From the IMG/VR virus record IMGVR_UViG_3300009155_000038: 64,000 bases of DNA, one strand, 5' to 3'. The notes under the pieces were generated by a model. It saw only the letters and a program-made list of their open reading frames with translations. It had not been told where the DNA came from and ran no database searches. The position numbers were made by a program, and so were the translations under genes. The DNA comes from a virus. Shown here in pieces: positions 9,582-61,444 of this stretch; the first letter of the stretch is position 1, and the number at the start of each line of letters is the position of its first letter.

Positions 9582-9965
9582 TTAGGCGTTCTGCATTGCT
9601 GCAGCAGTGGCAGCCTGCAGCATTAAAACAGCCTGAGCGATCTCAGGCTTGGCCGCTGCGGCGCTGGCGGTGCCAGCGAAAGCAGACGACTTTTCAACTG
9701 TGCCGCCAAGGCCCGCGGCCGCAAGCATCTCGTCAAGCTGCTGGTTAGCAACGTTGAGCGAGGATACTTGCGCGGCCGCGGCCTTTTCTTGCTCTGCCGT
9801 ATAGAGCACATGGAGCTTGGAAGCAGCTGTCCACATTTCTGCAGCTTCACTCTCAGAGCGCGGAGCAAGTCCGTGCGCTGCGAGCTTCTCAAAAAAATGC
9901 GGGGCGGCAAGTTCCGTCACGATTGTGGCGTATGCTTGCTCCGCCGCTTCCTTAACATTGTCCAT
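9582..9965 (-). CDS. Ala-rich head protein with K-x-A/S motifs
   Basis: 127 aa; VKEAA, EKLAA, EKAAA, EKSSA. Confidence 0.6.
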   Translation of the reverse strand: MDNVKEAAEQAYATIVTELAAPHFFEKLAAHGLAPRSESEAAEMWTAASKLHVLYTAEQEKAAAAQVSSLNVANQQLDEMLAAAGLGGTVEKSSAFAGTASAAAAKPEIAQAVLMLQAATAAAMQNA

Positions 9966-9998
9966 GACTGTGCTCCTTTAGGTTAGTGCTTAAACGGC

Positions 9999-10970
9999 TT
10001 ACTTGAAGTCAACGCGAGCCAGACCGTTCGTGTGACCGAACGAGCCGCCTTGCGTGTTGTAGGCGAAATACTCAAGCATGTAAGCTTCACGACGGATGTA
10101 CATCGTGGTGGGCTCAAGCTCGTAGTTCTTGCCAATGAACTTGGGGCTGGCAAACATAAACAAGCTATCATCGGGGATAAGACCCGTATTAGCTGGCTGC
10201 GTGGTGTCGCTGATACCTTCCGCGGCCCGACGCTTGATCGTGACGATCCAGCGGCAGTTGAGGAAGTTAGTCTCAGCCCAGCCGTTCTTGATGATGTCCT
10301 GCGAGAAGTCACCGCCCATTTCGTCGCGACCGAACTTGAGGATTTCCTTGATCGTGATGTTATTCACGAGGCAAGTTTCAACCTCAAAGTGCGAAGGCGT
10401 ACGGGGCATGACCTTCAGGGCGTCAACAAGCGTCTCACGCGTGATGCCACCGCTGATCTCTTCATACTGCACCGAACCGGAAGCAACGTTCGCCACGCCC
10501 GGGGTCGGGAGGACGGCGTTGAAAGCGGCGATGAACTTCGAGTCTTCCTCGGCGAGCATGTCCTTGATCATGTTGTCGCTGAGAACCTGACGAATGTCGA
10601 TGACATACGTACGCAGTTCGTCGACGTCCTTCACAGCGCGGGGCGACACGATCCGGTCAAACATGACGCGGTAGCGCGGGCCACGGATGTAGAAGTTGAT
10701 CGGGAGTGTCGCAAACGGGAGCGACACAGCCGCCGGGGAATCGGGCTCCTTGTCCACAACCTTGACGGGCTTGTCAGTGTCAACCTGACGGTCCAGCTCG
10801 TCGTTGGTGATGGTCAGCGGGGGCATAATCCGACGATAGAAACCGTCTTCACGCATCTTGGTGCGCGTGAAATCGTTAACCGCGTCGATGGCCTGCTTCT
10901 GCATGCCGGGGGTATCGAGCTGCTCAAACAGTGTCTCGTTGAGCAGTTGTACTTCTTGCTGTGTGGGCAT
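9999..10970 (-). CDS. Major capsid protein (HK97-type)
   Basis: About 323 aa from ATG 10970 (GGAGG SD); highly biased codons; MREDGFYRRIMPP..RVMFDRIVSP..DELRTYVIDIRQVLSDNMIKDMLAEED; follows protease, scaffold and decoration genes. Confidence 0.8.
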   Translation of the reverse strand: MPTQQEVQLLNETLFEQLDTPGMQKQAIDAVNDFTRTKMREDGFYRRIMPPLTITNDELDRQVDTDKPVKVVDKEPDSPAAVSLPFATLPINFYIRGPRYRVMFDRIVSPRAVKDVDELRTYVIDIRQVLSDNMIKDMLAEEDSKFIAAFNAVLPTPGVANVASGSVQYEEISGGITRETLVDALKVMPRTPSHFEVETCLVNNITIKEILKFGRDEMGGDFSQDIIKNGWAETNFLNCRWIVTIKRRAAEGISDTTQPANTGLIPDDSLFMFASPKFIGKNYELEPTTMYIRREAYMLEYFAYNTQGGSFGHTNGLARVDFK

Positions 10971-11012
10971 TGTTGGAACCTCCATGTTCCTAGTAGTTAG
11001 TTAGTGTTTAGG

Positions 11013-11579
11013 TCAGTCGATGGTGGCAGCAGTGCCGGCGGGCAGGTAAACGCTCCAGAACGAAAGCGTCTGCACACCGTTGTGATTCTTCGACGCGCCG
11101 CTGGAAACAACACCGCAGACAGCGTTGACGTACTGAACAGCGCTCTGGTTTGTCAGAACACCGCCAGTGGACAGCGCGCTGGTCGAGGTGCCAGCTGTGA
11201 GCAGGTCGCCCGGAGCATAAGTCTGCGTCGCATCAAATTCAGTCGACGCAATCTCGTAACCACCGGTGGCAACAAGACCCGACAGCTTGCCGGTCGGCGA
11301 AACTGCCTGATGCATGAAGTTGCCGCCAGCTGTCGTGCCGGGGTTGCTGACGTCGGCATCGGACGAGCCGTTCAGCAGGAAGATGCCCATGTGCGAGCCG
11401 CTGACGCCGGGAAGAAATACTTCCTTGCCGCTAGCCAGCTCAAGATGCACAACGCGACCGCGCGGCACAGTGAACGAAACCGAACTCGACAGCTTGGCCG
11501 AGTAGTCGAGAGAAGCCATATCGAACCAGCCCTTTTTGACGTCAAGGCCGTGTTCGAACATAAGATCGGGAGCAGGCAT
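11013..11579 (-). CDS. Capsid decoration / auxiliary head protein
   Basis: 188 aa immediately upstream of the MCP; GGYEIASTEFDATQTYAPGDLLTAG pattern typical of beta-tulip decoration proteins. Confidence 0.6.
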   Translation of the reverse strand: MPAPDLMFEHGLDVKKGWFDMASLDYSAKLSSSVSFTVPRGRVVHLELASGKEVFLPGVSGSHMGIFLLNGSSDADVSNPGTTAGGNFMHQAVSPTGKLSGLVATGGYEIASTEFDATQTYAPGDLLTAGTSTSALSTGGVLTNQSAVQYVNAVCGVVSSGASKNHNGVQTLSFWSVYLPAGTAATID

Positions 11580-11641
11580 TGGTAGACCTCCATGTCTTTC
11601 TTGCTTTTGGAAGCGTCATGCTTCCGGGTAAACGAACGAAT

Positions 11642-12067
11642 TCAGTTAGTGGGGGGATTAAGTCCAAGACCGGTGAACAACTTCACGTCGGAGGCCTTGA
11701 GGCGACCGTCGCGAGCGCCGACATAGCTGTTGGTCAGGCTGTTCGACGGGTCGTAGCCGGCTGTCTTTACAGACGAGACGGGTGTACCCAGTCGGGCCAT
11801 CTCAGCAGCGTTCTTGTGCGACGCCAGCTTGATAACAAGTTCCATAGCGCGCACCGGATCTTGAAGAGCTGCAGCGAGCGCTTCCTTCTGGTGAGCTTCA
11901 ATCCGCTCGTTCTCAACACACGCCTTAACGGCTTCAGGAATCAGTCGGGCGACCTTCTCCTGAGCAGCCTCTTGCGCGGTCAGAACCGAAGCAGCCTTGG
12001 TCATCGCGGCATCGGAGAATCCGATGTAGTCGATAACCTTTTGTACGAGCGCGTTGTTGCTAGACAT
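11642..12067 (-). CDS. Head assembly protein (scaffold-like, helical)
   Basis: GGAGG SD; EKVA, KLAS and KTAG motifs. Confidence 0.55.
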   Translation of the reverse strand: MSSNNALVQKVIDYIGFSDAAMTKAASVLTAQEAAQEKVARLIPEAVKACVENERIEAHQKEALAAALQDPVRAMELVIKLASHKNAAEMARLGTPVSSVKTAGYDPSNSLTNSYVGARDGRLKASDVKLFTGLGLNPPTN

Positions 12068-12084
12068 TAAAACCTCCGAGAATA

Positions 12085-13434
12085 TCAACGGTTAAGGAGT
12101 TCGATGACGTGCTGCTTCATGCTGTCGCGCAGTTCGCGCGACCGCTTGGTGCGAGCTTCTTTAACTTGGAACTTGCCAGCGCGCTTGAAGCTAACGACCT
12201 CGCGGCCAATGGCATCAAGAGCAGCCGACGCTGTCTTGGGCGCTTCTGCCATCGCGGCTTCTTCCATCGGAGCAGCTTCGGGAGCCATGCCACCCTCAGC
12301 ACCGCCACCTTGGGAAAGAGCCTGAATCAGTGCCTCGGGCGGAATGCCGAGTTCTTCAAGCGCCATGGCCAGCTCTTGAACAGCCTCGTCACCACCGCCA
12401 GCTTCTGGGCCAGCAGCTTCCATCGGCATTTCTTCGCCCATGCCGCCGCCTTCGCCGCCCATCATGGCCTCAAGACCAGCCGGAGCTGCGTCGTCAGCCG
12501 GGGCGTCGCTTGCGCCGGAACCAGCGTCAGACGGAGCCGAATGATCTTCGCCTTCAGCAGCGTCGGCTGTCGGGTCAGCAGCAGCCATCTTCGATGTTAC
12601 AAAGCCGATGAACAGGTCAGCCATCTCGTCAGCTTCACGAATTGTGTTTGCACACACCTCGCGAACCGACGCCTCAGCCGCTTCCTTGCTCAGGCCAAGC
12701 GCAGCAGCAAGCTCGTAGCCGGCAGCAAAAGAAGCGGACTTACCCGAACGCAGAGCGCTCAGATCCGAGCCTTCAATCTTGCCGTCGTTATCAACGTCCA
12801 GCTTGGACTGGTTGCCCTTCAGGCCGCTGTGTTCAGCCTTTTCAGTTGCCGGCGACTCAGCGGCTTCCTCTTTTTTTCCTTCCATCTTCTCCTTCAGGAA
12901 AGCCGGCATTTCCGACTGCTTAGTCAGGTTGCTGGTACCGAAGTTGATGATGTTGGCGAGGATATCATTACCGAGAGCGCCAGCGCGATCGCGAGCTTCC
13001 TTGAACGTGACCGAGCTGTACTTCTCGCCGTCGTTGGTCTTGGCGGGATGCGATGTGCCCGGATCGTCCTTCGTGCCCTTGTAATCCTTCTCAGCGGAGG
13101 GATCTTCGCCAGTCGCGGCGGCGTTGGTACCGATGTTCAGCTGCACGTCGTCTTGACGACCTTCTTGCGGCAGTTCCGGGGTGCTATCAACACCGATTGG
13201 GCCCTGCTGCTTCTTGAGGTCAGCTTCGTACTCACTGGAGCGCGCGCCTTCCGTGGCAGCCTGTCCGTCGTTATCGACGTTGGCGCTGGGGTGCGAAGAA
13301 GCGCCAGCGTAACCACCCGGGTCAGACGGTGTGGGGCCAGCAGCCTTCTCGGCGGCGGTCTTAACAGGGCTCTTGCTAATCTCGTCAGCAAGGGCGTTGA
13401 GTTGCGCGAACAGTGAACGTTGCATCCGTGCCAT
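12085..13434 (-). CDS. Prohead scaffold/core protein
   Basis: Acidic, low-complexity, about 450 aa, between protease and capsid genes; KTAAEKAA, KYSS, KSAS, KEAA, KMAA, KTAS. Confidence 0.6.
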   Translation of the reverse strand: MARMQRSLFAQLNALADEISKSPVKTAAEKAAGPTPSDPGGYAGASSHPSANVDNDGQAATEGARSSEYEADLKKQQGPIGVDSTPELPQEGRQDDVQLNIGTNAAATGEDPSAEKDYKGTKDDPGTSHPAKTNDGEKYSSVTFKEARDRAGALGNDILANIINFGTSNLTKQSEMPAFLKEKMEGKKEEAAESPATEKAEHSGLKGNQSKLDVDNDGKIEGSDLSALRSGKSASFAAGYELAAALGLSKEAAEASVREVCANTIREADEMADLFIGFVTSKMAAADPTADAAEGEDHSAPSDAGSGASDAPADDAAPAGLEAMMGGEGGGMGEEMPMEAAGPEAGGGDEAVQELAMALEELGIPPEALIQALSQGGGAEGGMAPEAAPMEEAAMAEAPKTASAALDAIGREVVSFKRAGKFQVKEARTKRSRELRDSMKQHVIELLNR

Positions 13435-13478
13435 GATCATCTCCTTTGGTGTCTAATCGTTAACCGATTAGCTTCCGT

Positions 13479-14939
13479 TCATGTGATATAATTTTGCAGT
13501 ACACAGTGGTTTGCTGTCAACCAATTATTTCCGTGTTTCTCGCAGACTGTCGCCAAGGCGGCAATCTTATACAGGGCGTAATGCTGAGCCAGAGCTTGTT
13601 CTGCTTTACCACTCGCCTGTTTTTCACGCGGAAACTCAATCGACCGGGCATCACGAAGCACGGCTAAGTAAGCCCGTTTTTCGACGCTGACCGGTAATAC
13701 GCTATGTGTATGTGCTACCTTTTCTGCCCATACGCGTGTAGCGTGTGAAGCAGCGTTAGCAGGATAATACACGTTGTTTTCAAGCAGGCTGACGACGTCT
13801 TGATCATTAGCCAACTTAGAAAAAACATTGGGCAGCGCATAAGCCACCGCACCAATAAGTTTCTCGTCAGCTGATTTAACTGTCAAGGCTAAGAAATCCC
13901 GCACAGGCAGAATTACACCAGCCTCAGCCAACCCGCATAACACTTCGGCCATTTTAACAGCCGGGCAGCCATTTACATCAATCGGCGGTTGTACGGCCGA
14001 TGACGAAGATAGCGCAACTTGTGTCCAGTTCGCAGCATTCGCGCCAGCAAGCTTCTCAGCCTGTACAAGTTGCTGCAGCGCTTCAAGCTGTAACTGCGCC
14101 CGAACAGACGCGTTTTTATCGTAATCAAAGCCAATAGGCGCTGTTACACCCAGCTGCTCAGCTAGTTCAGCGCCAGACAGAATGCAAGCGCCGGCGGCTT
14201 TTTCAAGCTTGCCCGACACATAAGCAATTCTGTCAGCGGGCCGGAATACGTGAGAAATATCAAAAAAGCTAGGGTTGGGGTTATCGGCGTGCAGCACATG
14301 CCCGTCTGACATAACCCGACCAATGTTGTGCTTCAGACCGCCTGCTTTACAGTGGCCACCGTTTTCAATTGAGTCGCAATACTCAGCGCGGGTCTTAGCC
14401 GTGTTACCGCAAGACGAACACTTATCAAACGGGATCTTGCAGGCCATTGAGACAGCGATGTCTTTTTCGTTGGCCAGCTTTTCCATTTCCTTGTCGGCAA
14501 TTAAACCGCCGTTGCGCTCTGCGGCTTCTTTCGAGCCGTTCAGTGCACAGACGAGTTCAATACGTCGCATCGGCTCGTGATAAGCGCTAGCTTTAACAAT
14601 ACCGAAGCTCTTGGCTGGATTCTTGTTGGCGTGGTCCCGATAGAAACGAGCAAACTTTTCGAACGTCGGGTGATACTTCTGGCAGCACTCGCGGGTGAAT
14701 CCGTCGCCGTTACGGTTCGGGCCGTAATCTTCCGTGGCGCCGATAGCGATCATGTGTACCGGAATTTCGTCTTTAGCGAACTTGATGTTGTCCAGCTTGT
14801 GAACAAACTCAGCGCCGGCGCGCTTGATAAGATCAGCCTTATCGCTGCCAATAATACCGCGGCTAGATATCTTAATCAGGCTGGCCACGGGCTCGCTGAA
14901 GTCTTGCGAATGCGGCTGGATAACTTTGATCATGCTCAT
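13479..14939 (-). CDS. Prohead (maturation) serine protease
   Basis: GPNRNGDGF..RDHANK..IAVSMACKIPFDKCSSCGN..FFDISHVFRPADRIA; conserved pattern of large-phage prohead proteases; typical position. Confidence 0.8.
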   Translation of the reverse strand: MSMIKVIQPHSQDFSEPVASLIKISSRGIIGSDKADLIKRAGAEFVHKLDNIKFAKDEIPVHMIAIGATEDYGPNRNGDGFTRECCQKYHPTFEKFARFYRDHANKNPAKSFGIVKASAYHEPMRRIELVCALNGSKEAAERNGGLIADKEMEKLANEKDIAVSMACKIPFDKCSSCGNTAKTRAEYCDSIENGGHCKAGGLKHNIGRVMSDGHVLHADNPNPSFFDISHVFRPADRIAYVSGKLEKAAGACILSGAELAEQLGVTAPIGFDYDKNASVRAQLQLEALQQLVQAEKLAGANAANWTQVALSSSSAVQPPIDVNGCPAVKMAEVLCGLAEAGVILPVRDFLALTVKSADEKLIGAVAYALPNVFSKLANDQDVVSLLENNVYYPANAASHATRVWAEKVAHTHSVLPVSVEKRAYLAVLRDARSIEFPREKQASGKAEQALAQHYALYKIAALATVCEKHGNNWLTANHCVLQNYIT

Positions 14940-14942
14940 GGT

Positions 14943-15650
14943 TTACTCGCTTGCGGCGCTGCCGCGTAAAGAACTAAGAAGCGTCGGCAGGGCAAGCGCG
15001 CCAGCGCCGATCATCGCGTATCGGCCCCTGACCGGCGGCAACTTTTTAAGCGTAGCGCGGAAGGCCGCAGCCGGTGCTTTTTTTCCCGCCCCGCGGCGCG
15101 ACAACGCCGCAATAATGTCGGCGTCAGCCTTGCCCGCACTGCGCATCTTTTCGACAGCGGGCGCTAGGTGTTTTGCCAGATCAGGATTCGCATCGACTGC
15201 GCGGTCTAATTTACCCCACTGATCGAGCATGCCGTGCGCTTTATGTCCGCCGTAACCGCCAACTCCAGCACTACCTAATCCAACAGCTGTATTCAAAACG
15301 CTGTTATCGTGGCCCGCTTGCGCTACGGCTGGCGGGGGAGTTGTCGGCGAAGAGAACTCACGCGCGGCTGTTACTCCAAGACCGCCAAGGCCGCCCATCA
15401 ACGCGTAATTCAGCGCAGAGCGTCGTTTGTTCTTAGGCTGCAGCATGCCGACTAACCCGCCGGCGCCTGCGCCAAGCAACGCATTTTGTAGGTACGGGCT
15501 CGACGCAATCTGCGCGAGATCAATGTTAGCCTGCTTCTTCGTCTGCAGTGTTGCAACGACGGTTGCAACCTTTTCAGTCTCAGCGGACGCTTTACGCAAC
15601 GCCAAGCCGGCTAAACCGCGCGCTAACTGCTGTTGTTCTGTGTTGTTCAT
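14943..15650 (-). CDS. Glycine-zipper virion (internal head) protein
   Basis: LLGAGAGGLVG, LMGGLGGLG, GLGSAGVGGYGG segments; EKVA, KKQAN. Confidence 0.55.
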   Translation of the reverse strand: MNNTEQQQLARGLAGLALRKASAETEKVATVVATLQTKKQANIDLAQIASSPYLQNALLGAGAGGLVGMLQPKNKRRSALNYALMGGLGGLGVTAAREFSSPTTPPPAVAQAGHDNSVLNTAVGLGSAGVGGYGGHKAHGMLDQWGKLDRAVDANPDLAKHLAPAVEKMRSAGKADADIIAALSRRGAGKKAPAAAFRATLKKLPPVRGRYAMIGAGALALPTLLSSLRGSAASE

Positions 15651-15659
15651 GATTATGGC

Positions 15660-17039
15660 TCAGATAAGTGTGCGGGCAGCTTGCTGTGCTTGATTAGTCG
15701 CCTTTTCAGTTTCAGCTTTCGCCTTTTCCAGCTCAACGAGTTGCTGTACGTCAAAGTCGGCCATCCCGCCAGACTCAAGACGCTTGCGCAGTAAAGCCTG
15801 CATGGCGGCGCTTGAGCCAGTAAAGTTTGGCGCCATCTCGGCGATTTGGTTATACGCGCTCGCTACTTCATTCGGGTCATAGCCGGAGATAACTGGGTCG
15901 TTAAGAATTAAATCGTTCAGCACGCCGCGGGACTTAATTTGCTGCAGCCGGTTTTCATGATCTGGGCTAGCAAGGCGCGCGAACGCTTTTTGTTTCTGCT
16001 GCATGGGATCTGTGGCGGCGTCGGCACGCGCGGCTTGATCGGCAATAGCGCCGCTACCCATAAGCTTGCCAAGGTTTGCCATAGTGCCACCGAACGATGT
16101 TAACGGCGCGGGAGCACTATCTTTTTTTTTGCCGTCGTCAGACGCTGCCTTGAGCGTCAGCGGTTCTTCAAGCGGGTTATACAGAATCGAGCCTGTAGTA
16201 AAAGTTGGCGCTGCTTTCTTATTGATTACAGACGCCTGCTTTACCGTATCAAGATTGCTTTTAGCCGTGTTGTAAGCGTCAACGGCGTCAAGCACGTTTG
16301 TTACAAGCGAATAAGGACCGGTAAGGCCCAGATGTGTTTCACCGGTGGCGGCCTGCTTTTCAAGGTGCGGATAAACAGCGGCGAGCTTGTTCAGCACGGC
16401 CACGCCTTCGGCACCCAGACGCAGGTCAACTTCTCGCAGCGCGTCGCCAAATGACATATGGCCGGGCTTGCGGAAATAGTCGTGCAGCATATCCATTGCG
16501 TCCGCAGCCTTCTGATAAGCCATGGTCGAAATGCGGCGCGTCTCTTCAGCAGCGCGTTTTTCAGCCGCTTTCTGGCTGTAAGCACGCTCAGCAGCAAACT
16601 TCTCGTCGCGCGGGGGCGGGACGAACGTCTTGGCCGGAAGCTGATATTGCGCGGCGGCTGCTTTTTCAAGCGACGCGTTACGGCGAGCTAAGAACCCGGC
16701 CGGCGAAACAGCGTACTCGGTCGACACGATTGATTCTGATAACAATTCGCTCGATGTCTTGACCTGTTTGGGATACAGCGCCTCAAGAACAGAGTCAGCG
16801 TCGGCAAGCTGGAAGTCAGCGGACTTCTCAGTGGCGTCATCGCCCTGCTCGCGCTGCTTGGTGGTGCGGCCCGTGTTATAGGCGTGCACCATAAGATTAA
16901 TGTGGCCCGCCGGTACATTCGCTTCCGACGCGCTCTTTACGATTGCGTCGTTTGGCGAAGAGCCGGCATTTACGAGAGTAGCCGCGCGCTCAATGGCGCT
17001 GATAAGTTTCTGTTCGGCTTCTTTGCTGAGTGAACGCAT
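15660..17039 (-). CDS. Internal head/core protein with many K-x-A/S motifs
   Basis: 459 aa helical; KSAS, EKSAD, KTSS, EKAAA, EKQAA, KQAS, KKAA, KAAS. Confidence 0.6.
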   Translation of the reverse strand: MRSLSKEAEQKLISAIERAATLVNAGSSPNDAIVKSASEANVPAGHINLMVHAYNTGRTTKQREQGDDATEKSADFQLADADSVLEALYPKQVKTSSELLSESIVSTEYAVSPAGFLARRNASLEKAAAAQYQLPAKTFVPPPRDEKFAAERAYSQKAAEKRAAEETRRISTMAYQKAADAMDMLHDYFRKPGHMSFGDALREVDLRLGAEGVAVLNKLAAVYPHLEKQAATGETHLGLTGPYSLVTNVLDAVDAYNTAKSNLDTVKQASVINKKAAPTFTTGSILYNPLEEPLTLKAASDDGKKKDSAPAPLTSFGGTMANLGKLMGSGAIADQAARADAATDPMQQKQKAFARLASPDHENRLQQIKSRGVLNDLILNDPVISGYDPNEVASAYNQIAEMAPNFTGSSAAMQALLRKRLESGGMADFDVQQLVELEKAKAETEKATNQAQQAARTLI

Positions 17040-17041
17040 CG

Positions 17042-17977
17042 CTACTCTCCGGGGAAGTGCAGATTCTCAATATTTTGCTGATTTCGCAGAGAACCACCAG
17101 TCGCCAAAACCATTAACTCGTCGTTTCTTAATTCGGCTGCGCCATTATCAAAAGGTAACATTTTTACTGTGTCGGAATCCAGTTTTGTCCCAACTTTGAA
17201 CGGAAGCGACGACAGCATAGCCCCGATGTTTTCGACAATAGTAGAGTGGGCTTTGGTCGCGTTTTCAGTTGTACGTTCGATTTCTACGTATTTTACAAAA
17301 CTGTCGATAAGCGCTAACTGCGTATGGGTATTGATCTGCACCGTCAAAGTTGCGATAGCCGCCTTGTATTTCATCGAACTAATAGCAAAATCTTGGAAAA
17401 AGCCTGATACATCTTCTGGCGTTTCAGGGCGAGTAATTTCACTGGATTTGCTAAGTACCGCGTTCAAAACATGTGTGCCGCCCTTATAGCCAAGCATTTT
17501 CCAGAGTAAGTCGTATTGGCGCTCTTGCAGCCCACGCGTGACGGCATCAGCCATTATGACATTAGTAATATAGTCAGTGTTGTATAATTTTTCGCGCACA
17601 TCAAAAAATACTTGCGCGTATGCCGCGATAACAGCCGGCGTTGTACCGACCCGGTCAGCGATTTCCTCATCTGATTCGCCTGCAAGGATCCGAGCTTCAA
17701 TACCCCAGCGAGTCGGGGCTTTATCCTCGGCCCATAGAGAATGGGCCCAAAACATGTCGCTATCGCGCGCTAATAACGAATAAATGGCGTCCGGTCTATT
17801 GCTAGCCTGCTCAAATCTGCGCTTTAACCTAACGGCGCGGCGGATCCACTCAAAGCCGCCGGGACCGTCAAACGTCCGCGCTGGTTTGCGGCCGCCTGCG
17901 TCTATCTGTATAGCGCGCAACCAACGCCAATTAGGCGCTCGCCGTGGACTAGCGTGAAGGTAATTTGGGATTTCCAT
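17042..17977 (-). CDS. Conserved hypothetical protein (head cluster)
   Basis: 311-aa ORF tightly packed with its neighbours. Confidence 0.6.
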   Translation of the reverse strand: MEIPNYLHASPRRAPNWRWLRAIQIDAGGRKPARTFDGPGGFEWIRRAVRLKRRFEQASNRPDAIYSLLARDSDMFWAHSLWAEDKAPTRWGIEARILAGESDEEIADRVGTTPAVIAAYAQVFFDVREKLYNTDYITNVIMADAVTRGLQERQYDLLWKMLGYKGGTHVLNAVLSKSSEITRPETPEDVSGFFQDFAISSMKYKAAIATLTVQINTHTQLALIDSFVKYVEIERTTENATKAHSTIVENIGAMLSSLPFKVGTKLDSDTVKMLPFDNGAAELRNDELMVLATGGSLRNQQNIENLHFPGE

Positions 17978-17992
17978 AAGCTGCTGCTGGCA

Positions 17993-18649: not shown

Positions 18650-18654
18650 AACAA

Positions 18655-18978: not shown

Positions 18979-18997
18979 GATATCGCTCCGTAGATAT

Positions 18998-19417: not shown

Positions 19418-19427
19418 TTTTCACCTA

Positions 19428-23773: not shown

Positions 23774-23774
23774 A

Positions 23775-24014
23775 TTACGGCGCCCAGACAATGTTTTCGA
23801 TCGGCTTTGGTTTAAATTCTGAAACTGCGACTGTCTTATTAATGCCTAACGCCTGCAAAATTGAGTGAAAGTCTTTTTCGCCGGGCGTTGAATACACAAT
23901 CGCCTCATCAAGCTGAAGCGCTACAAAAATAGGGTTGCCCAGATCGTCTTCAACAACGATGCTGTGCGCTTTTTGTTCTGTAGGCTGCAGCTTGTACTGC
24001 GTCTTAATGTGCAT
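23775..24014 (-). CDS. Small hypothetical protein between RNAP genes
   Basis: ATG 24014 overlaps the upstream stop; about 79 aa. Confidence 0.55.
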   Translation of the reverse strand: MHIKTQYKLQPTEQKAHSIVVEDDLGNPIFVALQLDEAIVYSTPGEKDFHSILQALGINKTVAVSEFKPKPIENIVWAP

Positions 24015-24729
24015 TCCCGGACAAGCTCCGCAACATGGCCGCAGCGGCACTCGCCTTGGTTTGCAGATCAACCGCCGGCGACTCCACAGTGCTGGTTACA
24101 CTGCGATCAACCGGGTGCCCGATGTAAGACGCTGACTTGTTGTATTCATTAGCCAGATCCCACCAGCTAGCTACCTTACCCGCATTGGGGTCTTGCGGCG
24201 GGGCGCTGGGATCCATGGGACCGCCCGGAGGCAGCGGACCACCCGGAGCTTGCGGGCCTTGCGGCGCGCTGGGGTCTTGCTGCGGGGGTGGCGGCGCCAT
24301 CGGACCACCGGGAAGTGCCGACTCAGCCGGCGGTGCGCCCGGCGAACCCGGAGGCAGAACCAGCGATTCTGGCGGAACTTGCACGCCCAGCGCGTTCATA
24401 ATCGCCGTTAACTGCTGCTGCATGTTGTACAGCCGGTAATCCAACATGTTCATCATCTGCTCAGGCTTGAGCTTCTGTACGGCAGCGGCGCCGGGAGCAG
24501 CACCGGGCGCCGCGGGAGCAGCTGGAGCCGCGGGTGCAACAGGGGCTGCGGGAGCAACAGCACCCATAGCTGCCGGGTCAACAGGCGGAGCGGCGGCAGC
24601 CGGATCGGCGGGAGGAGCCGCGCCCATTGCTGCGGGGTCCACGGGGGCGGCTGCGGGCGGCGGGAAATCAGCCTCTTTTACGAGGCGCGCTGCCGCTAAG
24701 GCAATAAGTTCTGGGTTAACTGTGTACAT
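24004..24729 (-). CDS. Pro/Ala-rich protein with central helical segment, between RNAP genes
   Basis: SD GGAGGAG; PAA repeats; KEAD, KVAS, KSAS motifs. Confidence 0.65.
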   Translation of the reverse strand: MYTVNPELIALAAARLVKEADFPPPAAAPVDPAAMGAAPPADPAAAAPPVDPAAMGAVAPAAPVAPAAPAAPAAPGAAPGAAAVQKLKPEQMMNMLDYRLYNMQQQLTAIMNALGVQVPPESLVLPPGSPGAPPAESALPGGPMAPPPPQQDPSAPQGPQAPGGPLPPGGPMDPSAPPQDPNAGKVASWWDLANEYNKSASYIGHPVDRSVTSTVESPAVDLQTKASAAAAMLRSLSGNAH

Positions 24730-47628: not shown

Positions 47629-47630
47629 GG

Positions 47631-51338: not shown

Positions 51339-51359
51339 GGCAAAATTCCTGCTGTGTAA

Positions 51360-52343: not shown

Positions 52344-52362
52344 AGATCAGCTCCGTAAATAA

Positions 52363-54903
52363 TTACGCGTTGGATTTATCGGCTGTTGAGTCGTCAGCCC
52401 CGCCATTTGAAGTAGCTGGTGCTTGTGCCACCAATTTAACATTGCTCGGGCGCAATTTCAATTTCTTCAGGCGGGCTTTCAACCGTTCGCTCTGTAACGG
52501 CATGGAGTTAAATACAGCCGCAAGCTTCTCTGGCTCGTGATTCTTGCTGCCCTCTTCGCGCAGAATACGCCTGAATTCTTCGTTGACTTGCTCTTTTTCA
52601 TTGGCTAAATGAGCCAATACTTCGTCGCCAGTGCGTTCGCGCTTGTAGCCCATGAGCCTGCCCAACACACTGGGGTCTTCCGAGCTACTTAGATATCTTT
52701 GTACCGCGACGTTCTTGAGTTCCTCTGGCAGCCCAACATGAGAGTCAAACCGTAACCCACGACCACGCGCCTGCTGGCTACGGGTTTCGTTCCAATGCGG
52801 GTCTAAAAGTTGGATAAGACTGGTGCCCTTGGTCGACAACCCTTCGGCGCCAGCGGGGCCAATAAGGAGCGCTCTGAGCTTGCCGGCGTTGTACGCATCG
52901 ACAGCGGCTTGGCGGGCCTTGGGTGTCACGCCGCCATGAAAGAACCCGTGCGGGACTTTGGCTTTCTCTAGCGCGCTGGCATACGGGGCTAAGCCAGACT
53001 CTACAAAGTTCGAGTAGATGATGGCTTTCTTGCGTGGGTCTGTCTGCAGTTCTTTCTGCAGGTTATTAAATGCAGCTTGAAGCTTGGCGCTCTGCGTAAA
53101 CGCTTTGCTCGGGTCTTTGTCTACCCTGAATGGCTGCGTGGAGAGACTCACTTGGCGCATGCCCGACATAAAAGAGTTTAGCTTGGCCAGCTCTTCGCGC
53201 GACAGCGGGAACTCATGGTCGATCTTCCATAAGAATCCCGGCGGAATCTTCGTGCGAATAGCTTTCTGGATCTTCTGCTGTTCTGCACTCAGTGGTACGT
53301 GCACTGTCTGCTCGTTGATGTTCACGCCTTCTGGTGTCTTGCTGGGCTGATAGTCTACGTGGCCAGCAAGAAGCTTTCTTAGGCCAGCTTCGTTTTTGAC
53401 AACTGGTTTGACACCCGGCTGCGCGCCCCTGAGCCAGCCCATAATCCCCGGCCACACTGTCTTCTGGCCTACGTACTGCTTGTTAAACTCTTCAGGCGTG
53501 ATCTGCTTGTTATGAATCAGCGACAAGAGATTAGCCATGTCGCTGGGCTCATTGGTAACAGGCGAACCAGTGAGCAGCAAGAGTCTTTTAGCGGCTGCAG
53601 CAGCTTGCGCAGCGGCTTGGGAGCTAGCAGCGTTGGGATTACGTAATCTATGGGCCTCGTCCATGATGAGCGTGCTGGGCTGCTCTTGGAATTTCTTGCC
53701 CAGCCCCAGCCCCGTATAACTCATGACCTCGGGATCAGAGCCAGTTGTGAACTTCTTGATCTCTTTCTCGAAGTTGCCCTTCAAGCTAGCAGGCGCCACG
53801 ATGCCGTAAGTACCGCCGAACTTCTTCTTGGCGGCTTCTGCGGCAGCTAATGCAGAAAGAGACTTGCCACTACCCAAGCCGTGATAGACAAGCATGCGGG
53901 GCTCGTCTTCTGTGACTTCGTCAGCTATTCTTTGCTGGTGGGGTTGTAACTGGACTTCTGGAAGCAAATCAGCTTGCTTTTCAGCCACGTACTTCTGCAT
54001 AGCTTTGCGCTGGTAGTCGTCTAGCATCTCTACTACACCATTTCGCGCGTCGTTAGTAACCAATTTCGCAGGGTCGATTCCCCAGTTGCGTAAAGCCCAG
54101 CCTCTACGTGGTGTTGGATTACTCACAAAGGGCCCGCCGTGTCGCGCTTTGAAGCTAGACCAGCGCTTAATCTGCCGTTCGTCTTCTTCTGGGATGCGCC
54201 GGCCAGCTGAGTAGCGCTTATACCACTGCGCCCAGCCCTTCGGGTCATGCTTTGACACCCACTCGGGCTTCCACTCGCCCAGACTAGCCAATCTGGGGCC
54301 TTGGTTTCTATACAGCGCGTCGTACACGCCCAAGTTCTCAAGCTGCTCAGGCGTGTAGTCTGGCTGAAACTTGTCGGCGATGTCCGCAGTTCGCGAATCG
54401 AGGACAGGAACATCGGCAGCAGCGTGCTTTGCCCACGCTTTGCCAGCTAACTCAGCAAACCGTTTGCGCAGTGCGTCCTTGTCATCAAACTGCTCGATGT
54501 TACGCATGTGGTCAGTGAGTTTTACTTTGTGCGTCTTCGTGGGCGTGACATCGTGTGGCACAGACCAGCCAAGATTCGGATCGCTTTCGGGCGGCGCAGA
54601 ATATTGGTCAGAATCGTACTCGTATACATCGCCCTCGGGCAGCAGCGCGTTGTTTTTGTAGATGAGCAGCTTGGGGTTTGCGCCGCCAATAACAGCCATG
54701 CCCTTGCGATCTTTGGCTAATGCGTACAGCGCAGCCCAGTCCAAATTATCAGTGCCGTAGACACCAGCGCCGCCCATATTTGGCTGCTGGGCTTTCAGCG
54801 TAGTTAAACCGGGCGTTGTTGAGCCGTGATAGAACGTCTTGGCGCCCTTCTCCCACGCACTGCCAGCCGCCTGCGCAATGATATCTTTATCCAGATCAGG
54901 CAT
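52363..54903 (-). CDS. Polyprotein-like fusion: ADP-ribosyltransferase-like domain + conserved viral domain + SF2 (SNF2-like) helicase
   Basis: FYHGS..GVYGT..A..YA..VYE; DPKGWAQWYKRY..GRR..EDERQIKRW; HGLGSGKS, DEAH, LLTGSP, QQARGRGLR; KHAA, KQAD and KLAA at boundaries. Confidence 0.8.
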   Translation of the reverse strand: MPDLDKDIIAQAAGSAWEKGAKTFYHGSTTPGLTTLKAQQPNMGGAGVYGTDNLDWAALYALAKDRKGMAVIGGANPKLLIYKNNALLPEGDVYEYDSDQYSAPPESDPNLGWSVPHDVTPTKTHKVKLTDHMRNIEQFDDKDALRKRFAELAGKAWAKHAAADVPVLDSRTADIADKFQPDYTPEQLENLGVYDALYRNQGPRLASLGEWKPEWVSKHDPKGWAQWYKRYSAGRRIPEEDERQIKRWSSFKARHGGPFVSNPTPRRGWALRNWGIDPAKLVTNDARNGVVEMLDDYQRKAMQKYVAEKQADLLPEVQLQPHQQRIADEVTEDEPRMLVYHGLGSGKSLSALAAAEAAKKKFGGTYGIVAPASLKGNFEKEIKKFTTGSDPEVMSYTGLGLGKKFQEQPSTLIMDEAHRLRNPNAASSQAAAQAAAAAKRLLLLTGSPVTNEPSDMANLLSLIHNKQITPEEFNKQYVGQKTVWPGIMGWLRGAQPGVKPVVKNEAGLRKLLAGHVDYQPSKTPEGVNINEQTVHVPLSAEQQKIQKAIRTKIPPGFLWKIDHEFPLSREELAKLNSFMSGMRQVSLSTQPFRVDKDPSKAFTQSAKLQAAFNNLQKELQTDPRKKAIIYSNFVESGLAPYASALEKAKVPHGFFHGGVTPKARQAAVDAYNAGKLRALLIGPAGAEGLSTKGTSLIQLLDPHWNETRSQQARGRGLRFDSHVGLPEELKNVAVQRYLSSSEDPSVLGRLMGYKRERTGDEVLAHLANEKEQVNEEFRRILREEGSKNHEPEKLAAVFNSMPLQSERLKARLKKLKLRPSNVKLVAQAPATSNGGADDSTADKSNA

Positions 54904-54917
54904 GGGTGCGTTTCCGC

Positions 54918-55772
54918 TCACTGTACAGCGTCGAGAATAGGCGTCTGGCCTTCGGTGGCCCGCGCCTGCTTGGCTAGCTCGTATTGCTCGATCTGTGATT
55001 CTACCCAATCCGCGTACAAACTAACACGGGTATGCGCCGACTCGTCTGTGTACGTTCCGTTGGGCTTGCCGTCTTTGGCCATGAGAAACGAGTGTATTCC
55101 AGCTAGTTTGTTACCTATAAACAAGCCGCCGCCAGAATCACCGGGGGTAATTAAGAACTCCAGCACTGTTTTCTGGTACATGCTGGGGTCACACACTAAG
55201 ACAGAGCGCTCTAGGCTCGTAATCTTGTTACTTCCAGCCCTACGCTTGCCGTCTTGCTCTGCCATGCCCGTATGAAACGTGCCCTGAAAGCCAAAGCCGG
55301 CCATAGTAGCCTCTTTGCCCAGCTCGTCTGTCTCTGTGTACAGCGCTGGATAGAACGTTAACCCCAAGTCTTTCGCTGAATAGCACAGGGCGATGTCGTA
55401 GTACCCGTTCTTGCCGTCGTCAAACAAGGGGTGCGAGATCGTGTGCTGGATGGGGTATTCTGTCGGATCCAGCTCGTCGCCAAGAATAGTGGGCTGCGCG
55501 ACGTCGATTAAGACGTGCGCGGCAGTGAGCACCCAGTGTGGGCGAATCATCACTGCGGAGCCGTAGAAGACATGAATAGCTTTGGGGTCTTTGGGGGCGC
55601 GCTCTTCGGCCCTGATTCTGCGCACAAACGGGAACTTCTTGCCAAACTCGACGTACTTCTCGTCGGGAGTTTCGGGATCGCGAGTGCCGGCTGTAATGGG
55701 CCCGCCTGACACACCCGCTAGGCAGAGAAAGATCAGAAGCACGCGGCGGAGAATAATAATTGCAGCATCCAT
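54918..55772 (-). CDS. Secreted trypsin-like (S1) serine protease
   Basis: Signal peptide; LTAAHV, DIAL, GDSGG triad. Confidence 0.9.
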   Translation of the reverse strand: MDAAIIILRRVLLIFLCLAGVSGGPITAGTRDPETPDEKYVEFGKKFPFVRRIRAEERAPKDPKAIHVFYGSAVMIRPHWVLTAAHVLIDVAQPTILGDELDPTEYPIQHTISHPLFDDGKNGYYDIALCYSAKDLGLTFYPALYTETDELGKEATMAGFGFQGTFHTGMAEQDGKRRAGSNKITSLERSVLVCDPSMYQKTVLEFLITPGDSGGGLFIGNKLAGIHSFLMAKDGKPNGTYTDESAHTRVSLYADWVESQIEQYELAKQARATEGQTPILDAVQ

Positions 55773-55854: not shown

Positions 55855-57837
55855 TTACGCCGGGGCTGCGCCTAGCTCGTTGTCGGGTTTCTTGCGCCTC
55901 GACCTGCCCCACGCATGGGCTGCTGCGAGGGCTGCAGCGCCACCAGCACCAAGTGCAAGTGCTGGTGCGTACTTGCCCATGCCCTTGAAGCTAGGCATAG
56001 CGCTGGGTGTCGGGGTGGGTACAGGCGCAGGAGCTGGCATAGCGCTGCGAGCAGCATTCTGAATAGCACCAGTGGCTTTATAGCCAGCAGCGCCCATCAA
56101 ACCCATGGCGCCAGCACCTAAGAGCGCACGCCTACCGCCGGCCATGCGAAGTTGCTTGAGCAAGAGCTGCTTATTCGTTGCCAGCAGCGGCTCAAACTCG
56201 CCAGAGATAGCTACTCTGTTGGGCAGCGTGATGGCATTCGGGAACTTGCTCTTTGTTTTACCCAGCGCTTCGTATACAGTCGCCGGGAACGACCCACACA
56301 TATGCCCGTCGCATGTGTTCACATTCTTATTGAACCCCGGAATGTATTTTGCGAGATTCGACAGGCCAGTAATCTCACCGATAGCGCCCAAGCCAGCATT
56401 CCCGATCGCGTAACCCTTGAGCCCTTCGGCTTTCAAGAGCGGATCTAACGCGCCGCCAACATCAGGGCCTTTTGGACGCAACCAGAGTGTGCCCTTGGGA
56501 CCATAGTAGTGCCCGCGGGGATGTAATCGTGAGCCCTCAAGAATCGTATGTTTGTATACGTTGTCAGCCTCGGGAACGTACATGCTGCCGGGGCGCATCT
56601 TGGCTCGCGCTACGTCAGCGGCATAGTCCGCCGGCTGATTGCGCAGCTCTTTCATTAACAGCGACCAGCCATACCCAGCCGACGGGTCTTTCTGGTATGC
56701 GCGCCATTGCTTCGGACTGAATGGCCCGTCAACGAAGTCAAGGCCGCGAAACCCAAGCGTTTCGAGCGGTGTCATGTTCGTTCGGCCCGTGTTCATGCCG
56801 CCGTGTAACACAGTCGGCACAAACGTCTCGAATTTCTTGGGCTTAAAGATAGCAGAACGCGCTGGCGCCGGGCCGGGCACACCGACCTGATCCACTTGTT
56901 TCATTAAGTCTGTAGACAGCGCCTTCATGCGCGGGTTGTTCTTGTACTTCTCGCCAAACAAGTCAGCCAGCGACTTGATCTTCTGCCGTTTGGCGTTATT
57001 GGCAGCTTCTATGGCTGCAGGGTGCTTGGCTGTAACATCGCTACGCACGCTAGAGAGGAAGTCATCGGCTTTGCCAGTAGGCGTCTTGGGTTCAGCAAAC
57101 TGCTGCAACTCGGGCCGCGACAGAAACTTCTTGAAGTCTCTCACCGACGTGCTTCTAAGCTTTTGAAGCCTTTGTAATTTAGCTAACTCTTCCGTGCTGA
57201 GCCGCGGGTCTTTGGGTGGTTTGGCATTACTCGTGCTTTTGTCATACGCCTCCCACGCCCGTTGGCGCTTTTGAAGCGGCGCTAGCTCTTTGGCGCGCCC
57301 CCGAAGCCGCTCTTTCGTGTTACCGTATGTATCAGTGCCGGCCGTCCCGTCGTCTGCCCACTCATAGCCGCGGTTTGATGCGTTTAGGAACCGCTTGGGA
57401 TCTTTCGCTTCTATGTCTGAGAACAAGTCGCCGCGGTCGTTGCGCAGAAACGCGAGATCCGGCGGCATTTCGCCCTTGGGTGTGCGGGACACACTATGGT
57501 GGGCTTTGACATTGGGCCCGGCAATCTGGCCATGCGCGCCCGGACCGCCTGAAGCGCCGAACGAGCCATGCACAAGCACATTGGTAAACGGGTCGGTGCT
57601 GCCCTGTAACCCAGAGATGCCGTAGTCGCCCGGCTTGATCGTCCTGAGCACCTTGGCCACGTCGACATGCCCATCGGCTGTTGTGGCATCTTCAGCCGCT
57701 TCGAGCAGCTTTTTATAGGCCGGGTAGTCGTGCCGAACGTAATCCCAGAGACTCTTCGCTGGCAGTGCAGCGCCAGCCACAGCGCCCGCGGGCCTGAAAT
57801 CAATAGGGCGCTTCTGGTCTTGGTTGTCAGCCGGCAT
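55855..57837 (-). CDS. Large protein with possible permuted papain-like C-domain and glycine-zipper tail
   Basis: GGAG SD before ATG 57837; H..(KHTILEG) then MCGSFPATVY..TLPN; C-term LLGAGAMGLMGAAG, ALGAGGAAA followed by a basic tail. Confidence 0.5.
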   Translation of the reverse strand: MPADNQDQKRPIDFRPAGAVAGAALPAKSLWDYVRHDYPAYKKLLEAAEDATTADGHVDVAKVLRTIKPGDYGISGLQGSTDPFTNVLVHGSFGASGGPGAHGQIAGPNVKAHHSVSRTPKGEMPPDLAFLRNDRGDLFSDIEAKDPKRFLNASNRGYEWADDGTAGTDTYGNTKERLRGRAKELAPLQKRQRAWEAYDKSTSNAKPPKDPRLSTEELAKLQRLQKLRSTSVRDFKKFLSRPELQQFAEPKTPTGKADDFLSSVRSDVTAKHPAAIEAANNAKRQKIKSLADLFGEKYKNNPRMKALSTDLMKQVDQVGVPGPAPARSAIFKPKKFETFVPTVLHGGMNTGRTNMTPLETLGFRGLDFVDGPFSPKQWRAYQKDPSAGYGWSLLMKELRNQPADYAADVARAKMRPGSMYVPEADNVYKHTILEGSRLHPRGHYYGPKGTLWLRPKGPDVGGALDPLLKAEGLKGYAIGNAGLGAIGEITGLSNLAKYIPGFNKNVNTCDGHMCGSFPATVYEALGKTKSKFPNAITLPNRVAISGEFEPLLATNKQLLLKQLRMAGGRRALLGAGAMGLMGAAGYKATGAIQNAARSAMPAPAPVPTPTPSAMPSFKGMGKYAPALALGAGGAAALAAAHAWGRSRRKKPDNELGAAPA

Positions 57838-57868
57838 AACACATGCTCCTGAAGATGTATACCCCGTG

Positions 57869-57876
57869 AGTATACA
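57869..57876 (-). promoter_or_regulatory. Candidate late promoter element TGTATACT
   Basis: Downstream of a terminator, about 30 nt upstream of ATG 57837. Confidence 0.4.
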
Positions 57877-57900
57877 GTCGGTCATTTTAACCTAAAAGCG

Positions 57901-58781: not shown

Positions 58782-58809
58782 ATATACCCGGTTTTTGGCT
58801 TTTATTTAG
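58782..58809 (-). promoter_or_regulatory. 28-bp promoter motif CTAAATA-N11-CCGGGTATAT
   Basis: One of four copies with identical spacing. Confidence 0.7.
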
Positions 58810-58812
58810 ATA

Positions 58813-59889: not shown

Positions 59890-60155
59890 TCCTGTACTCC
59901 TTCCAGCCTGTTGAGCCGTTCGTGGATCAAGCTGTTGTTTTGCATTTGCGTTTCAAGAACGCCCAGCAGCCGACTAAGCATCTCGGCTTGCTTGACTGCA
60001 ATAGTTTCAGCGGCTTCAACGCGCTCAAACGCGGCTTTTAACGTATTCGCCAGAAACGCCGTCAACCGCTGCAGCTCGGCAATTTTGCCGTCGATTGTCG
60101 TTGGGCTATCTTCTGGAAACATAGCCGAAACGTCTGGACCGATTTCGTAACTCAT
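59886..60155 (-). CDS. Small coiled-coil early protein
   Basis: GAGG SD before ATG 60155; heptad pattern; stop overlaps the ceramidase start. Confidence 0.65.
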   Translation of the reverse strand: MSYEIGPDVSAMFPEDSPTTIDGKIAELQRLTAFLANTLKAAFERVEAAETIAVKQAEMLSRLLGVLETQMQNNSLIHERLNRLEGVQE

Positions 60156-60220
60156 CTCGAACCTCCGCAAAGAAAAGAGTCCCGGGCATTCCCAATACAC
60201 CACATATTGGGTATCAGGTA

Positions 60221-60248
60221 ATATGCCCGGAACTGGCGGAGTATTTAG
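60221..60248 (-). promoter_or_regulatory. 28-bp promoter motif CTAAATA-N11-CCGGGCATAT
   Basis: Copy with identical spacing. Confidence 0.7.
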
Positions 60249-60262
60249 ATAGCTAAACCAGC

Positions 60263-61444
60263 CTACTGGCCAATGCGACCCAAGTAGACGCCGAACTGCA
60301 TCGCGCTAGAGCACTTGCAGTTCCACTTGCGCAGGGACTTATTTATGCGCGAGTCTGGGTCGTGAGCTGTCGCGCTACCAGTCTCGTGCTTCTTCATGCC
60401 GCACATACGCGAACAGAAAGAATGTCTACGGGCCTTGGCTTTGCCTGTGGGGTGCTTTTCAGTCACGGGCGCTTTGAGATGGCCGCCTGTCGCTTTGTTA
60501 TAGCTAGCCCTGCCCTTGGCATTCAGGCCGCCTTCTTCGTTCTTCCCAGCACTGCGCTGCCATGCGGGAGAACCAGCTGACTTCTCAGGCGAGTTTGTTA
60601 CACCCAAGCCAGCGTTGCCATTGATCACGCCACTAGTGCTCAGCCCGCCAAACGATTGAATGGGATTAAACATCGGGCTGTTACCCTTGGGCGCCATAGG
60701 TTTAATAGGCTTGATGCCGCCCTTGTTCCCAACTGGCGGCGCGCTTGGTGACGTAGCCTGTGGGCCTGCCGGCATGGGCGATACATTGGCTACTTTCTGC
60801 GGCTGGGCGGGAGCTGCCGGAGCCTGTGCTTGGGCCGGCGCTTGTGGCATAACAGCCTGCATTTGCTGGGCCTGAGCCTGTTGCGCACCCATTGGAAGAG
60901 GGGTTGCTGAAGCTGGTTGGGCGTATTGTTGTAAGTTAACATTCTGGGGCACTGGGGCTGCTTGTTGGCCCTGCGCCGCTGCTTCTTCGTCTGCAATCCC
61001 CTGCTGTATCACCTGCGATAACACTACTGCTAACTTACGTAATGTCTCATTTACAGGGGGTTTTTGCTGTTCTTTAGATAACTGACCCAATAACTGCCCC
61101 TCTTGATCTGGACCCTTGAGACTGACGTGTTCATCCCCTGCAGACGTGGGCTTATCGCAGTGGGGAACCTCTACAGGGACGGCAGCAGAGTTCGCATATT
61201 TGGCTGTAAGAGCCGCTACGTAGTTAACAACGGTATTTTTGACGCTTGTATAATTTTTTGTAACACTCGCAGCCACACCAGCCTCCTTAGACTTCTCTGA
61301 GTCTTTAGTTTCAGACGGTTCTTTGGTTTTGTGCGCGTATTCCGGCAGATTCTTCTGATTCGGATACTCGCGCGCCCAGCGTTTGGCGATATCTGGGTGC
61401 TCGGCCCAGAGAAACCTACGCTGCTTTTCTGACCTGAATGGCAT
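60263..61444 (-). CDS. Multi-module virion cargo protein with DUF6321-like domain
   Basis: MPFRSEKQRRFLWA N-module; KEAG, KYAN, KVAN, EKSAG; SPAWQR..GGLNAKGRASYN..RRHSFCSRM..SRINKSLRKWNC; C-term FGVYLG. Confidence 0.7.
   Translation of the reverse strand: MPFRSEKQRRFLWAEHPDIAKRWAREYPNQKNLPEYAHKTKEPSETKDSEKSKEAGVAASVTKNYTSVKNTVVNYVAALTAKYANSAAVPVEVPHCDKPTSAGDEHVSLKGPDQEGQLLGQLSKEQQKPPVNETLRKLAVVLSQVIQQGIADEEAAAQGQQAAPVPQNVNLQQYAQPASATPLPMGAQQAQAQQMQAVMPQAPAQAQAPAAPAQPQKVANVSPMPAGPQATSPSAPPVGNKGGIKPIKPMAPKGNSPMFNPIQSFGGLSTSGVINGNAGLGVTNSPEKSAGSPAWQRSAGKNEEGGLNAKGRASYNKATGGHLKAPVTEKHPTGKAKARRHSFCSRMCGMKKHETGSATAHDPDSRINKSLRKWNCKCSSAMQFGVYLGRIGQ

Follow-up and report, generated by a model that had tools for sequence, protein, structure and literature searches.

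Prohead proteases and their herpesvirus relatives read short, degenerate motifs. In phage phiKZ the protease gp175 has the code [S/A/G]-x-E, and the maturation and release sites of the herpesvirus assemblins follow (V/L/I)-x-A|S. In T4, the major capsid protein (MCP), gp23, is itself cleaved. The T4 protease gp21 cleaves at I/L-x-E and degrades itself (PMC12991175), while SPN3US gp245 cleaves after A-x-E with a preference for Ser at P1′, acts on propeptides with multiple copies of its motif, and removes its own C-terminal propeptide (PMC10052503). For phage P1 the code has been reported as E|S. All of the reported phage codes that we found (T4, SPN3US, and P1) place Glu at P1. Here we analyze a 64,000-nt stretch of the virus record IMGVR_UViG_3300009155_000038 (hereafter the window), in which a Lys-x-Ala motif is concentrated in a predicted prohead protease (13479-14939), a scaffold-like protein (12085-13440), and neighboring head-module proteins. 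Literature searches for a reported Lys-x-Ala rule or for processing data from phage G found none, and the Lys-x-Ala variant appears to be new.

The window is part of an uncultured phage of ~200 kb and holds its head-assembly module; almost all of its long open reading frames (ORFs) lie on the minus strand. Its relatives in IMG/VR have genomes of ~200 kb, several of them complete with terminal repeats. An initial annotation, made from the window alone, had proposed that K-x-[A/S] is the processing code of the protease at 13479-14939 and that it marks a large, dispersed set of head-packaged proteins. Our analysis bears differently on the two halves of that proposal.

Excess of the Motif in Head-Module Proteins

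Occurrences of K-x-[AS]-[AGSDN] were compared, protein by protein, with 2000 composition-preserving shuffles. Seven proteins showed strong over-representation (Table 1), with 55 sites in the pooled set against 14.5 expected (z 11.6). When the shuffle was restricted to 15-residue windows the excess persisted (z 11.5), and regional composition is therefore not its cause. So as not to pick proteins after counting, the contiguous block 9582-21827 (13 genes) was fixed beforehand and tested as a whole: K-x-A-[AGSDN] occurred 43 times against 12.0 expected (p 3.5e-12), with 44 against 34.3 for all remaining genes together. Control motifs were flat; these comprised the motif read backwards, [AS].K, K[AS], and variants beginning with R, E, Q, D, L, or T. 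The excess noticed in the initial annotation is thus real in these seven proteins and is not explained by Lys/Ala composition alone. The tetrapeptides that it had quoted are all present, both in the scaffold-like protein (KTAA, EKAA, KYSS, KSAS, KEAA, KMAA, and KTAS) and in the C-terminal half of the protease (EKAAG, EKLAG, KSAD, EKQAS, and KIAA), and 15660-17039, for which it had given "eight or more" sites, has 13.

The signal is carried by K-x-A (60 vs. 24 expected), while K-x-S shows none (13 vs. 12.6), so the Ser alternative in the motif as originally written adds nothing. When all 1600 residue pairs were scanned with gaps of 0-3, K.A came first in the head set (p 2e-9) and E-K second; K.A was unremarkable in the remainder of the window. 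Proteins outside the set that are comparably rich in Lys and Ala were without enrichment (55855-57885, 0 vs. 3.8; 48219-49034, 1 vs. 1.1). We also considered whether the MCP, tail, and RNA polymerase (RNAP) proteins avoid the motif, but dropped this idea because the expected counts are too small for depletion to show.

Conservation and Selection

Thirty-eight related loci were compared and their orthologues assigned; gene order is conserved in all 38 and in Salmonella phage Arash (OQ632216). Enrichment recurs in the same six orthologue groups, at 2.7-6.1 fold across 32-37 relatives, and the genes interleaved with them (MCP, 17042-17977, 18998-19417, 9201-9563, and the RNAP β′ C-terminal part) stand at 0-0.9 of expectation. 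The pattern persists in relative L037, the proteins of which are 32-41% identical, and around the protease of relative L038 (29% identity). Orthologues of 15660-17039 carry a mean of 8.2 sites against 2.0 expected, and the sites of 11642-12088 are kept in 0.71-1.00 of 34 orthologues. The protein at 24004-24729 is a weaker member of the set, with mixed site conservation. The MCP has no site in the window and a mean of 0.1 against 0.3 expected over 33 orthologues.

Within the head set, the motif residues themselves are preferentially conserved: 0.85 for motif Lys vs. 0.72 for other Lys (p 0.004), and 0.84 for motif Ala vs. 0.68 for other Ala (p 0.001). Conservation of the middle residue is 0.59, below the average of 0.70. 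The scaffold-like protein, with 37 orthologues, follows the same course (motif Lys 0.97 vs. 0.79 for other Lys; motif Ala 0.94 vs. 0.59; x variable). Conserved sites are encoded with both AAA and AAG for Lys and with all four GCN codons for Ala. Because codons vary synonymously at these sites, selection acts on the peptide rather than on a DNA word, and a nucleotide-word explanation was rejected on this ground. What is under selection is a short linear motif, concentrated in the protease, the scaffold-like protein, and neighboring head-module proteins, in keeping with the precedents of T4, phiKZ, and SPN3US. Its flanking consensus, [L/M/I]-[E/V]-K-x-A-[S/A], is common to the window, Arash, and Vibrio phages; Glu is enriched only at the position preceding Lys, where it occurs in 16 of 57 sites.

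The Protease at 13479-14939

The gene sits in the head module beside the scaffold-like gene and the MCP gene. An AlphaFold2 (AF2) model of its product (mean predicted local distance difference test, pLDDT, 89) has a catalytic α/β N-domain (residues ~17-241) joined by a disordered linker (242-253) to a helical C-domain (254-486). The N-domain matches T4 gp21 (5jbl_B) with Z 9.9 and a root-mean-square deviation of 3.2 Å over 141 of 164 residues (Foldseek probability 0.92-0.93), followed by the herpesvirus assemblins of pseudorabies virus, human cytomegalovirus, and Kaposi's sarcoma-associated herpesvirus (Z 6.0-7.3). In BFVD there were 64 matches at E<=1e-3; many carry the name prohead protease, among them proteins of phages G, PaBG, and phiRSL1. 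A family search yielded 2568 clusters at 50% identity, and in an alignment of 80 sequences (mean column identity 36%) His103 and Ser164 are invariant in 80/80, in the order expected of a catalytic His followed by a catalytic Ser; we regard them as the putative catalytic residues. No Pfam family matched at E<=0.01 (Peptidase_S77 and S78 included), the PHROG search returned only phrog_2774, of unknown function, and phmmer and profile searches of PDB sequences gave no match. Since Pfam and PDB gave no sequence-level match, membership among the assemblin-fold proteases, a group that takes in T4 gp21 (S77), HK97 gp4 (S78), and the herpesvirus enzymes (S21), holds at the fold level only. Judged by its modeled fold, then, 13479-14939 is a prohead protease, as initially proposed.

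The protease is also among the proteins richest in the motif, with 15 K-x-A sites in all. One of them lies in the linker, within the sequence L-E-K-A-A-G, and a K-x-A occurs within residues 236-262 in 79/80 diverse family members, typically as L-x-K-A-A-[S/G/A]. In the C-domain, which averages 28% identity to the window protein, the 80 sequences hold 611 K.A against 144 expected, and all 80 exceed expectation. The positions of these sites turn over, many of them being conserved in <25% of sequences. Density maintained while positions drift is the pattern that a need for many cut sites would be expected to produce. Of the 15 sites, the model puts 11 in loops or at the ends of helices and three or four mid-helix.

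Two further features of the protease family deserve mention. Many members among the homologues (P0121, P0126, and P0173) reach 830-1300 aa because their catalytic domain is interrupted by one or two inteins (Hint plus LAGLIDADG), at ~70-105 and in some at ~170, near the conserved N-R-N-G-D, His103, and Ser164 segments. Directly after Ser164 there is a cluster of invariant or near-invariant cysteines (C167, C174, C177, C188, and C197; residues 167-197, window 14349-14439), which from its sequence looks like a zinc-binding insertion. We know of no such Cys- or zinc-type insertion in prohead proteases.

Cultured and More Distant Phages

Salmonella phage Arash has a syntenic head module that includes RNAP genes, with a protease (gp222) 37% identical and an MCP 29% identical to those of the window. 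Vibrio phages D69, D148, and D181 are homologues as well; across Arash and the Vibrio phages, identities range over 35-37% for the protease and 28-29% for the MCP. In Arash, K.A ranks first of the 1600 pairs (44 vs. 19.7, p 1.8e-6) and L.K second. Among its 252 ORFs, the four most enriched (gp225, gp220, the protease gp222, and gp223) are adjacent to one another, and the genome-wide total is 97 against 88.8 expected. In Vibrio phage D181, K.A again ranks first (50 vs. 21, p 5e-8), and the protein in the scaffold position has 10 sites against 1.2. The paper on Arash does not describe a K-x-A motif (PMC10585845).

Genes Outside the Head Module

The initial annotation had listed motif-bearing genes along the window, up to 45 kb from the capsid genes, and had taken them for head-packaged proteins. 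The head-region part of that list stood, with seven enriched proteins, while most of the distal genes are at chance. Observed and expected counts were 2 vs. 1.5 for 29154-29996, 3 vs. 1.35 for 37042-38211, 1 vs. 1.0 and 1 vs. 1.1 for the genes at 47631 and 48219, 3 vs. 4.4 for 52363-55008, and 5 vs. 2.6 for 60263-61444; 35639-36769 and 50763-51338 have no site at all. For 45224-46897 the excess is marginal (6 vs. 2.7, uncorrected p 0.04). The listed span 50763-54903 comprises three separate genes, one of them the SNF2 helicase at 52363-55008, and other listed genes are likewise of ordinary type: a 2H phosphoesterase with DUF5661 (37042-38211) and a DUF6321 protein (60263-61444). Outside the head set, window proteins conserve motif and other residues alike (Lys 0.60 vs. 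0.58, Ala 0.56 vs. 0.54, p 0.39). With neither density nor site conservation exceeding chance, the claim of a large dispersed set is not borne out.

Genome-wide counts from three complete relatives agree with this: K.A totals are near expectation (294/309, 336/313, and 327/314, observed/expected), and the top-ranked ORFs are head-module orthologues plus one conserved protein of ~400 aa far from the module. This protein, which lies outside the window, is the most K-x-A-enriched ORF (13 vs. 3.0, 15 vs. 3.8, and 16 vs. 3.5 sites). Its gene lies tens of kb away from the head module and, in genome G002, on the strand opposite to that of its neighbors; the protein has only a sub-threshold match to DUF6582. 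The substrate set appears small, with about seven proteins plus one distal, and we found no evidence for a large set of cleaved cargo.

Density tests are blind to a lone propeptide site, and full conservation is seen at a few sites in proteins that are themselves poorly conserved, such as KQAA at residue 37 of 37042-38211. Both K-Q-A-A (residue 37) and K-A-A-A (residue 215) of that protein are retained in two orthologues, despite an overall identity of 59%, and the protein could be an enzyme that is packaged and carries a short propeptide. Individual cleavage events in certain packaged proteins are possible but not supported. A 69-aa Cys-rich ORF at 47428-47637 (minus strand) has three K-x-[AS] sites (KTSA, KYSA, and KTAN) in its last 16 residues; at 3 vs. 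0.14 (p 0.0015 uncorrected) it fails correction for 68 tests and is a borderline candidate.

Proposed Mechanism and Alternatives

Our preferred reading, which we hold with moderate confidence, is that the protease 13479-14939 recognizes [L/M/I]-[E/V]-K-x-A-[S/A], repeated in proteins that are dismantled or trimmed at capsid maturation. The protease would be built into the prohead with the scaffold-like protein and other motif-rich proteins, would cut itself at the linker, and would then cut its own C-domain and its partners at many K-x-A sites. Its targets would be the protease C-domain and linker, the scaffold-like protein, and four or five neighboring head-module proteins, all to be cleared or trimmed, while the MCP, without a site, would stay intact. 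The cut would most likely fall after Ala, making Lys P3, Ala P1, and Ser/Ala P1′; we place it there because T4, SPN3US, and the assemblins cut after the second of two specific residues flanking a free one. That the protease reads the motif, that any cutting takes place, and which bond is cut are points that we infer. A broader proposal is that K-x-A|S/A constitutes a distinct prohead-protease specificity class, nearer to the assemblin Ala|Ser rule than to any characterized phage enzyme; that it is common to the 2568-cluster family (50% identity; mostly uncultured ~200-kb phages), Arash, and the Vibrio phages; and that motif density marks the proteins dismantled at maturation, including the distal ~400-aa one. 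We regard this wider claim as evenly balanced.

Several observations weigh against proteolytic reading of the motif by this enzyme. With no site in the MCP, its cleavage would play no part in capsid maturation here. Enrichment also extends to the folded catalytic N-domain (3.4-fold), and because of this and the mid-helix sites not every copy can be an accessible cut site. Among more distant holders of the fold, the K.A signal is weaker in phage G (rank 3), and any K.A excess in mycobacteriophage LinStu is not significant. In Arash particle preparations, gp223, in the scaffold position, was detected at 100% coverage and the protease gp222 at 85% (PMC10585845), which does not suggest complete removal. 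The same sample lists 116 proteins, including ribonucleotide reductases (PMC10585845), and may contain proheads or contaminants.

The coverage of gp222 and gp223 and the copies in the catalytic domain and mid-helix, where cutting is unlikely, would sit well with a docking or assembly signal by which core, scaffold, and protease molecules bind a common partner (the inner surface of the MCP, the 799-aa protein, or the protease groove as an exosite) and assemble jointly into the prohead, with no scissile site, as would the restriction of the motif to head-module proteins that assemble together. We nevertheless think such a signal unlikely. Binding motifs are usually few and fixed in position, whereas here density is kept as sites change position within a domain that averages 28% identity; the best-conserved copy is found in a disordered linker between two domains, where autoprocessing classically takes place; and two specific residues with a free one between and a small one after follow the logic of protease sub-sites. 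Less probable still is that another enzyme reads the motif, whether a different phage peptidase, a host protease, or a Lys-directed modifying or cross-linking enzyme. The invariant Lys would suit the last of these, and nothing ties the motif physically to 13479-14939, but the motif tracks this prohead-protease subfamily across Arash, Vibrio D181, L037, and L038, and the protease itself is among the most enriched proteins, with its linker site in nearly every family member.

It is very improbable that composition or secondary structure generates the motif as a side effect. Ala makes up 14-29% of the proteins, which are mostly helical; E-K salt bridges would account for the Glu that often precedes Lys, and helix capping by K-x-A-G/S/N/D for the many protease sites at helix ends. 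Set against this are the local and global shuffles and the flat control motifs, the lack of enrichment in helical proteins of equal Lys/Ala content from the rest of the window and from four complete genomes, and the preferential conservation of the motif residues but not of x. This explanation is largely refuted. Proteolytic recognition by 13479-14939 remains the reading that we prefer.

Other Features of the Head Module

The phage's structural module occupies the region from 3 to 30 kb (Table 1). Searches of Pfam and PHROGs with ten head-module proteins came back almost blank, and neither megablast of 21 kb nor tblastn of the scaffold-like protein matched deposited phages. The MCP was identified by a profile match to the MCP of Bacillus phage G, gp27 (6wkk; E 1.2e-5), and by its identity to the annotated Arash MCP, gp226. 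The protein at 12085-13440 is acidic, low in complexity, and rich in Ala, Gly, and Glu, with a basic C-terminal helix; its position and composition suggest a scaffold role. The motif-richest protein, 15660-17039, has no Pfam or PHROG match.

The 799-aa protein at 19428-21827 is a weak homologue of Arash gp218 (BLAST E 2e-6), which was detected in Arash particles. It has no Pfam, PHROG, PDB sequence, or profile match, and the ESM Atlas gave nothing usable. A portal label was dropped, since only its gene position suits: the AF2 model has pLDDT 52, and its fold matches are generic helical hairpins. In Arash the portal annotation falls on another gene, gp204.

The RNAP genes lie inside the head module, with β fused to the N-terminal part of β′ and a separate gene for the C-terminal part of β′. 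In particle preparations of Arash, no other protein is as abundant as the homologous RNAP β (3516 spectra), an indication that the polymerase is packaged; a virion-associated RNAP is plausible here too. The Arash module differs in that a SNF2-type helicase lies inside it and the portal is annotated upstream of the RNAP. That helicase, gp217, is encoded between RNAP β′ and gp218 and was detected in particles; its counterpart in the window, 52363-55008, is 33% identical and lies ~30 kb from the module. A BLAST comparison with Arash at E 1e-3 gave no match for the window proteins at 31.2-35.6 kb.

Table 1. Coordinates of the head-module features and of the distal motif-rich protein. Paired numbers are K-x-[AS]-[AGSDN] sites observed vs. 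expected.
Feature	Position	Strand	Evidence
Tail sheath	3098-5905		PHROG match
Small Ala-rich protein, 127 aa, immediately downstream of MCP	9582..9965	-	4 vs. 0.9; orthologues 5.3-fold excess
MCP, without motif	9999..10985	-	Profile match to phage G gp27; homology to Arash gp226
Small motif-rich head-module protein, 148 aa	11642..12088	-	5 vs. 0.9; orthologues 6.1-fold excess
Scaffold-like protein, 451 aa	12085..13440	-	8 vs. 3.3; between protease and MCP
Predicted prohead (capsid maturation) serine protease, 486 aa	13479..14939	-	Fold; invariant His103/Ser164; 13 vs. 2.7
K247-A-A-G250, candidate autoprocessing site in inter-domain linker	14190..14201	-	Linker pLDDT <50
Motif-richest head-module protein, 459 aa; candidate core or internal head protein	15660..17039	-	13 vs. 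3.0, z 6.1
Structural protein, 799 aa	19428..21827	-	8 vs. 3.2; orthologues 3.7-fold excess
Multisubunit RNAP genes	21899-23791 and 24753-29150		Pfam
Pro/Ala-rich protein, 241 aa, between the two RNAP genes	24004..24729	-	4 vs. 0.75; orthologues 2.1-fold excess
Motif-rich protein, ~400 aa, outside the window	L052:10005-11246 (G002); G003 114269-115453; G004 154051-155256	+ (in L052)	K-x-A excess

Comparison With Known Prohead Proteases

If true, a Lys-x-Ala rule in an abundant and widespread family would broaden the picture of Glu at P1 and link the protease specificities of phages and herpesviruses. It would also provide a means, from sequence alone, to spot scaffold, core, and internal head proteins in phages where ~80% of genes are unannotated. 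The prediction is directly testable, given that Arash and the three Vibrio phages with the same motif are in culture. Sensors of the bacterial cyclic oligonucleotide-based antiphage signaling system (CBASS) are reported to detect prohead-protease activity via decoy loops bearing the protease motif (PMC12991175), a finding that adds to the timeliness of the question.

The motif has the form of a prohead code, with two specific residues and a free middle one, repeated in scaffold-like and core proteins and in the protease C-domain. The best structural match, T4 gp21 (MEROPS S77; PDB 5jbl), similarly reads a P3-x-P1-type motif repeated in scaffold, core, and the protease itself. Here, however, Lys and Ala are fixed rather than Glu, and no x.E pair was among the top gapped pairs of the head set; the MCP is without a site; the match is at the fold level only; and the protein has an additional helical C-domain of 240 residues and a cluster of four Cys following the putative catalytic Ser. 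In phiKZ gp175 and SPN3US gp245, as here, the phages are large, many head proteins have multiple motif copies, and a C-terminal propeptide is removed from the protease, a step that is only predicted in our case. The residues read differ from those of the window, where the substrate set also seems small. The herpesvirus assemblins (MEROPS S21) share the fold and the architecture of protease, linker with a site, and helical domain, and if the cut falls after Ala they would also share P1 Ala and P1′ Ser/Ala. They differ in having an aliphatic residue rather than Lys at P3 and a nested scaffold rather than a separate gene, and they show no sequence-level relationship to the protease described here.

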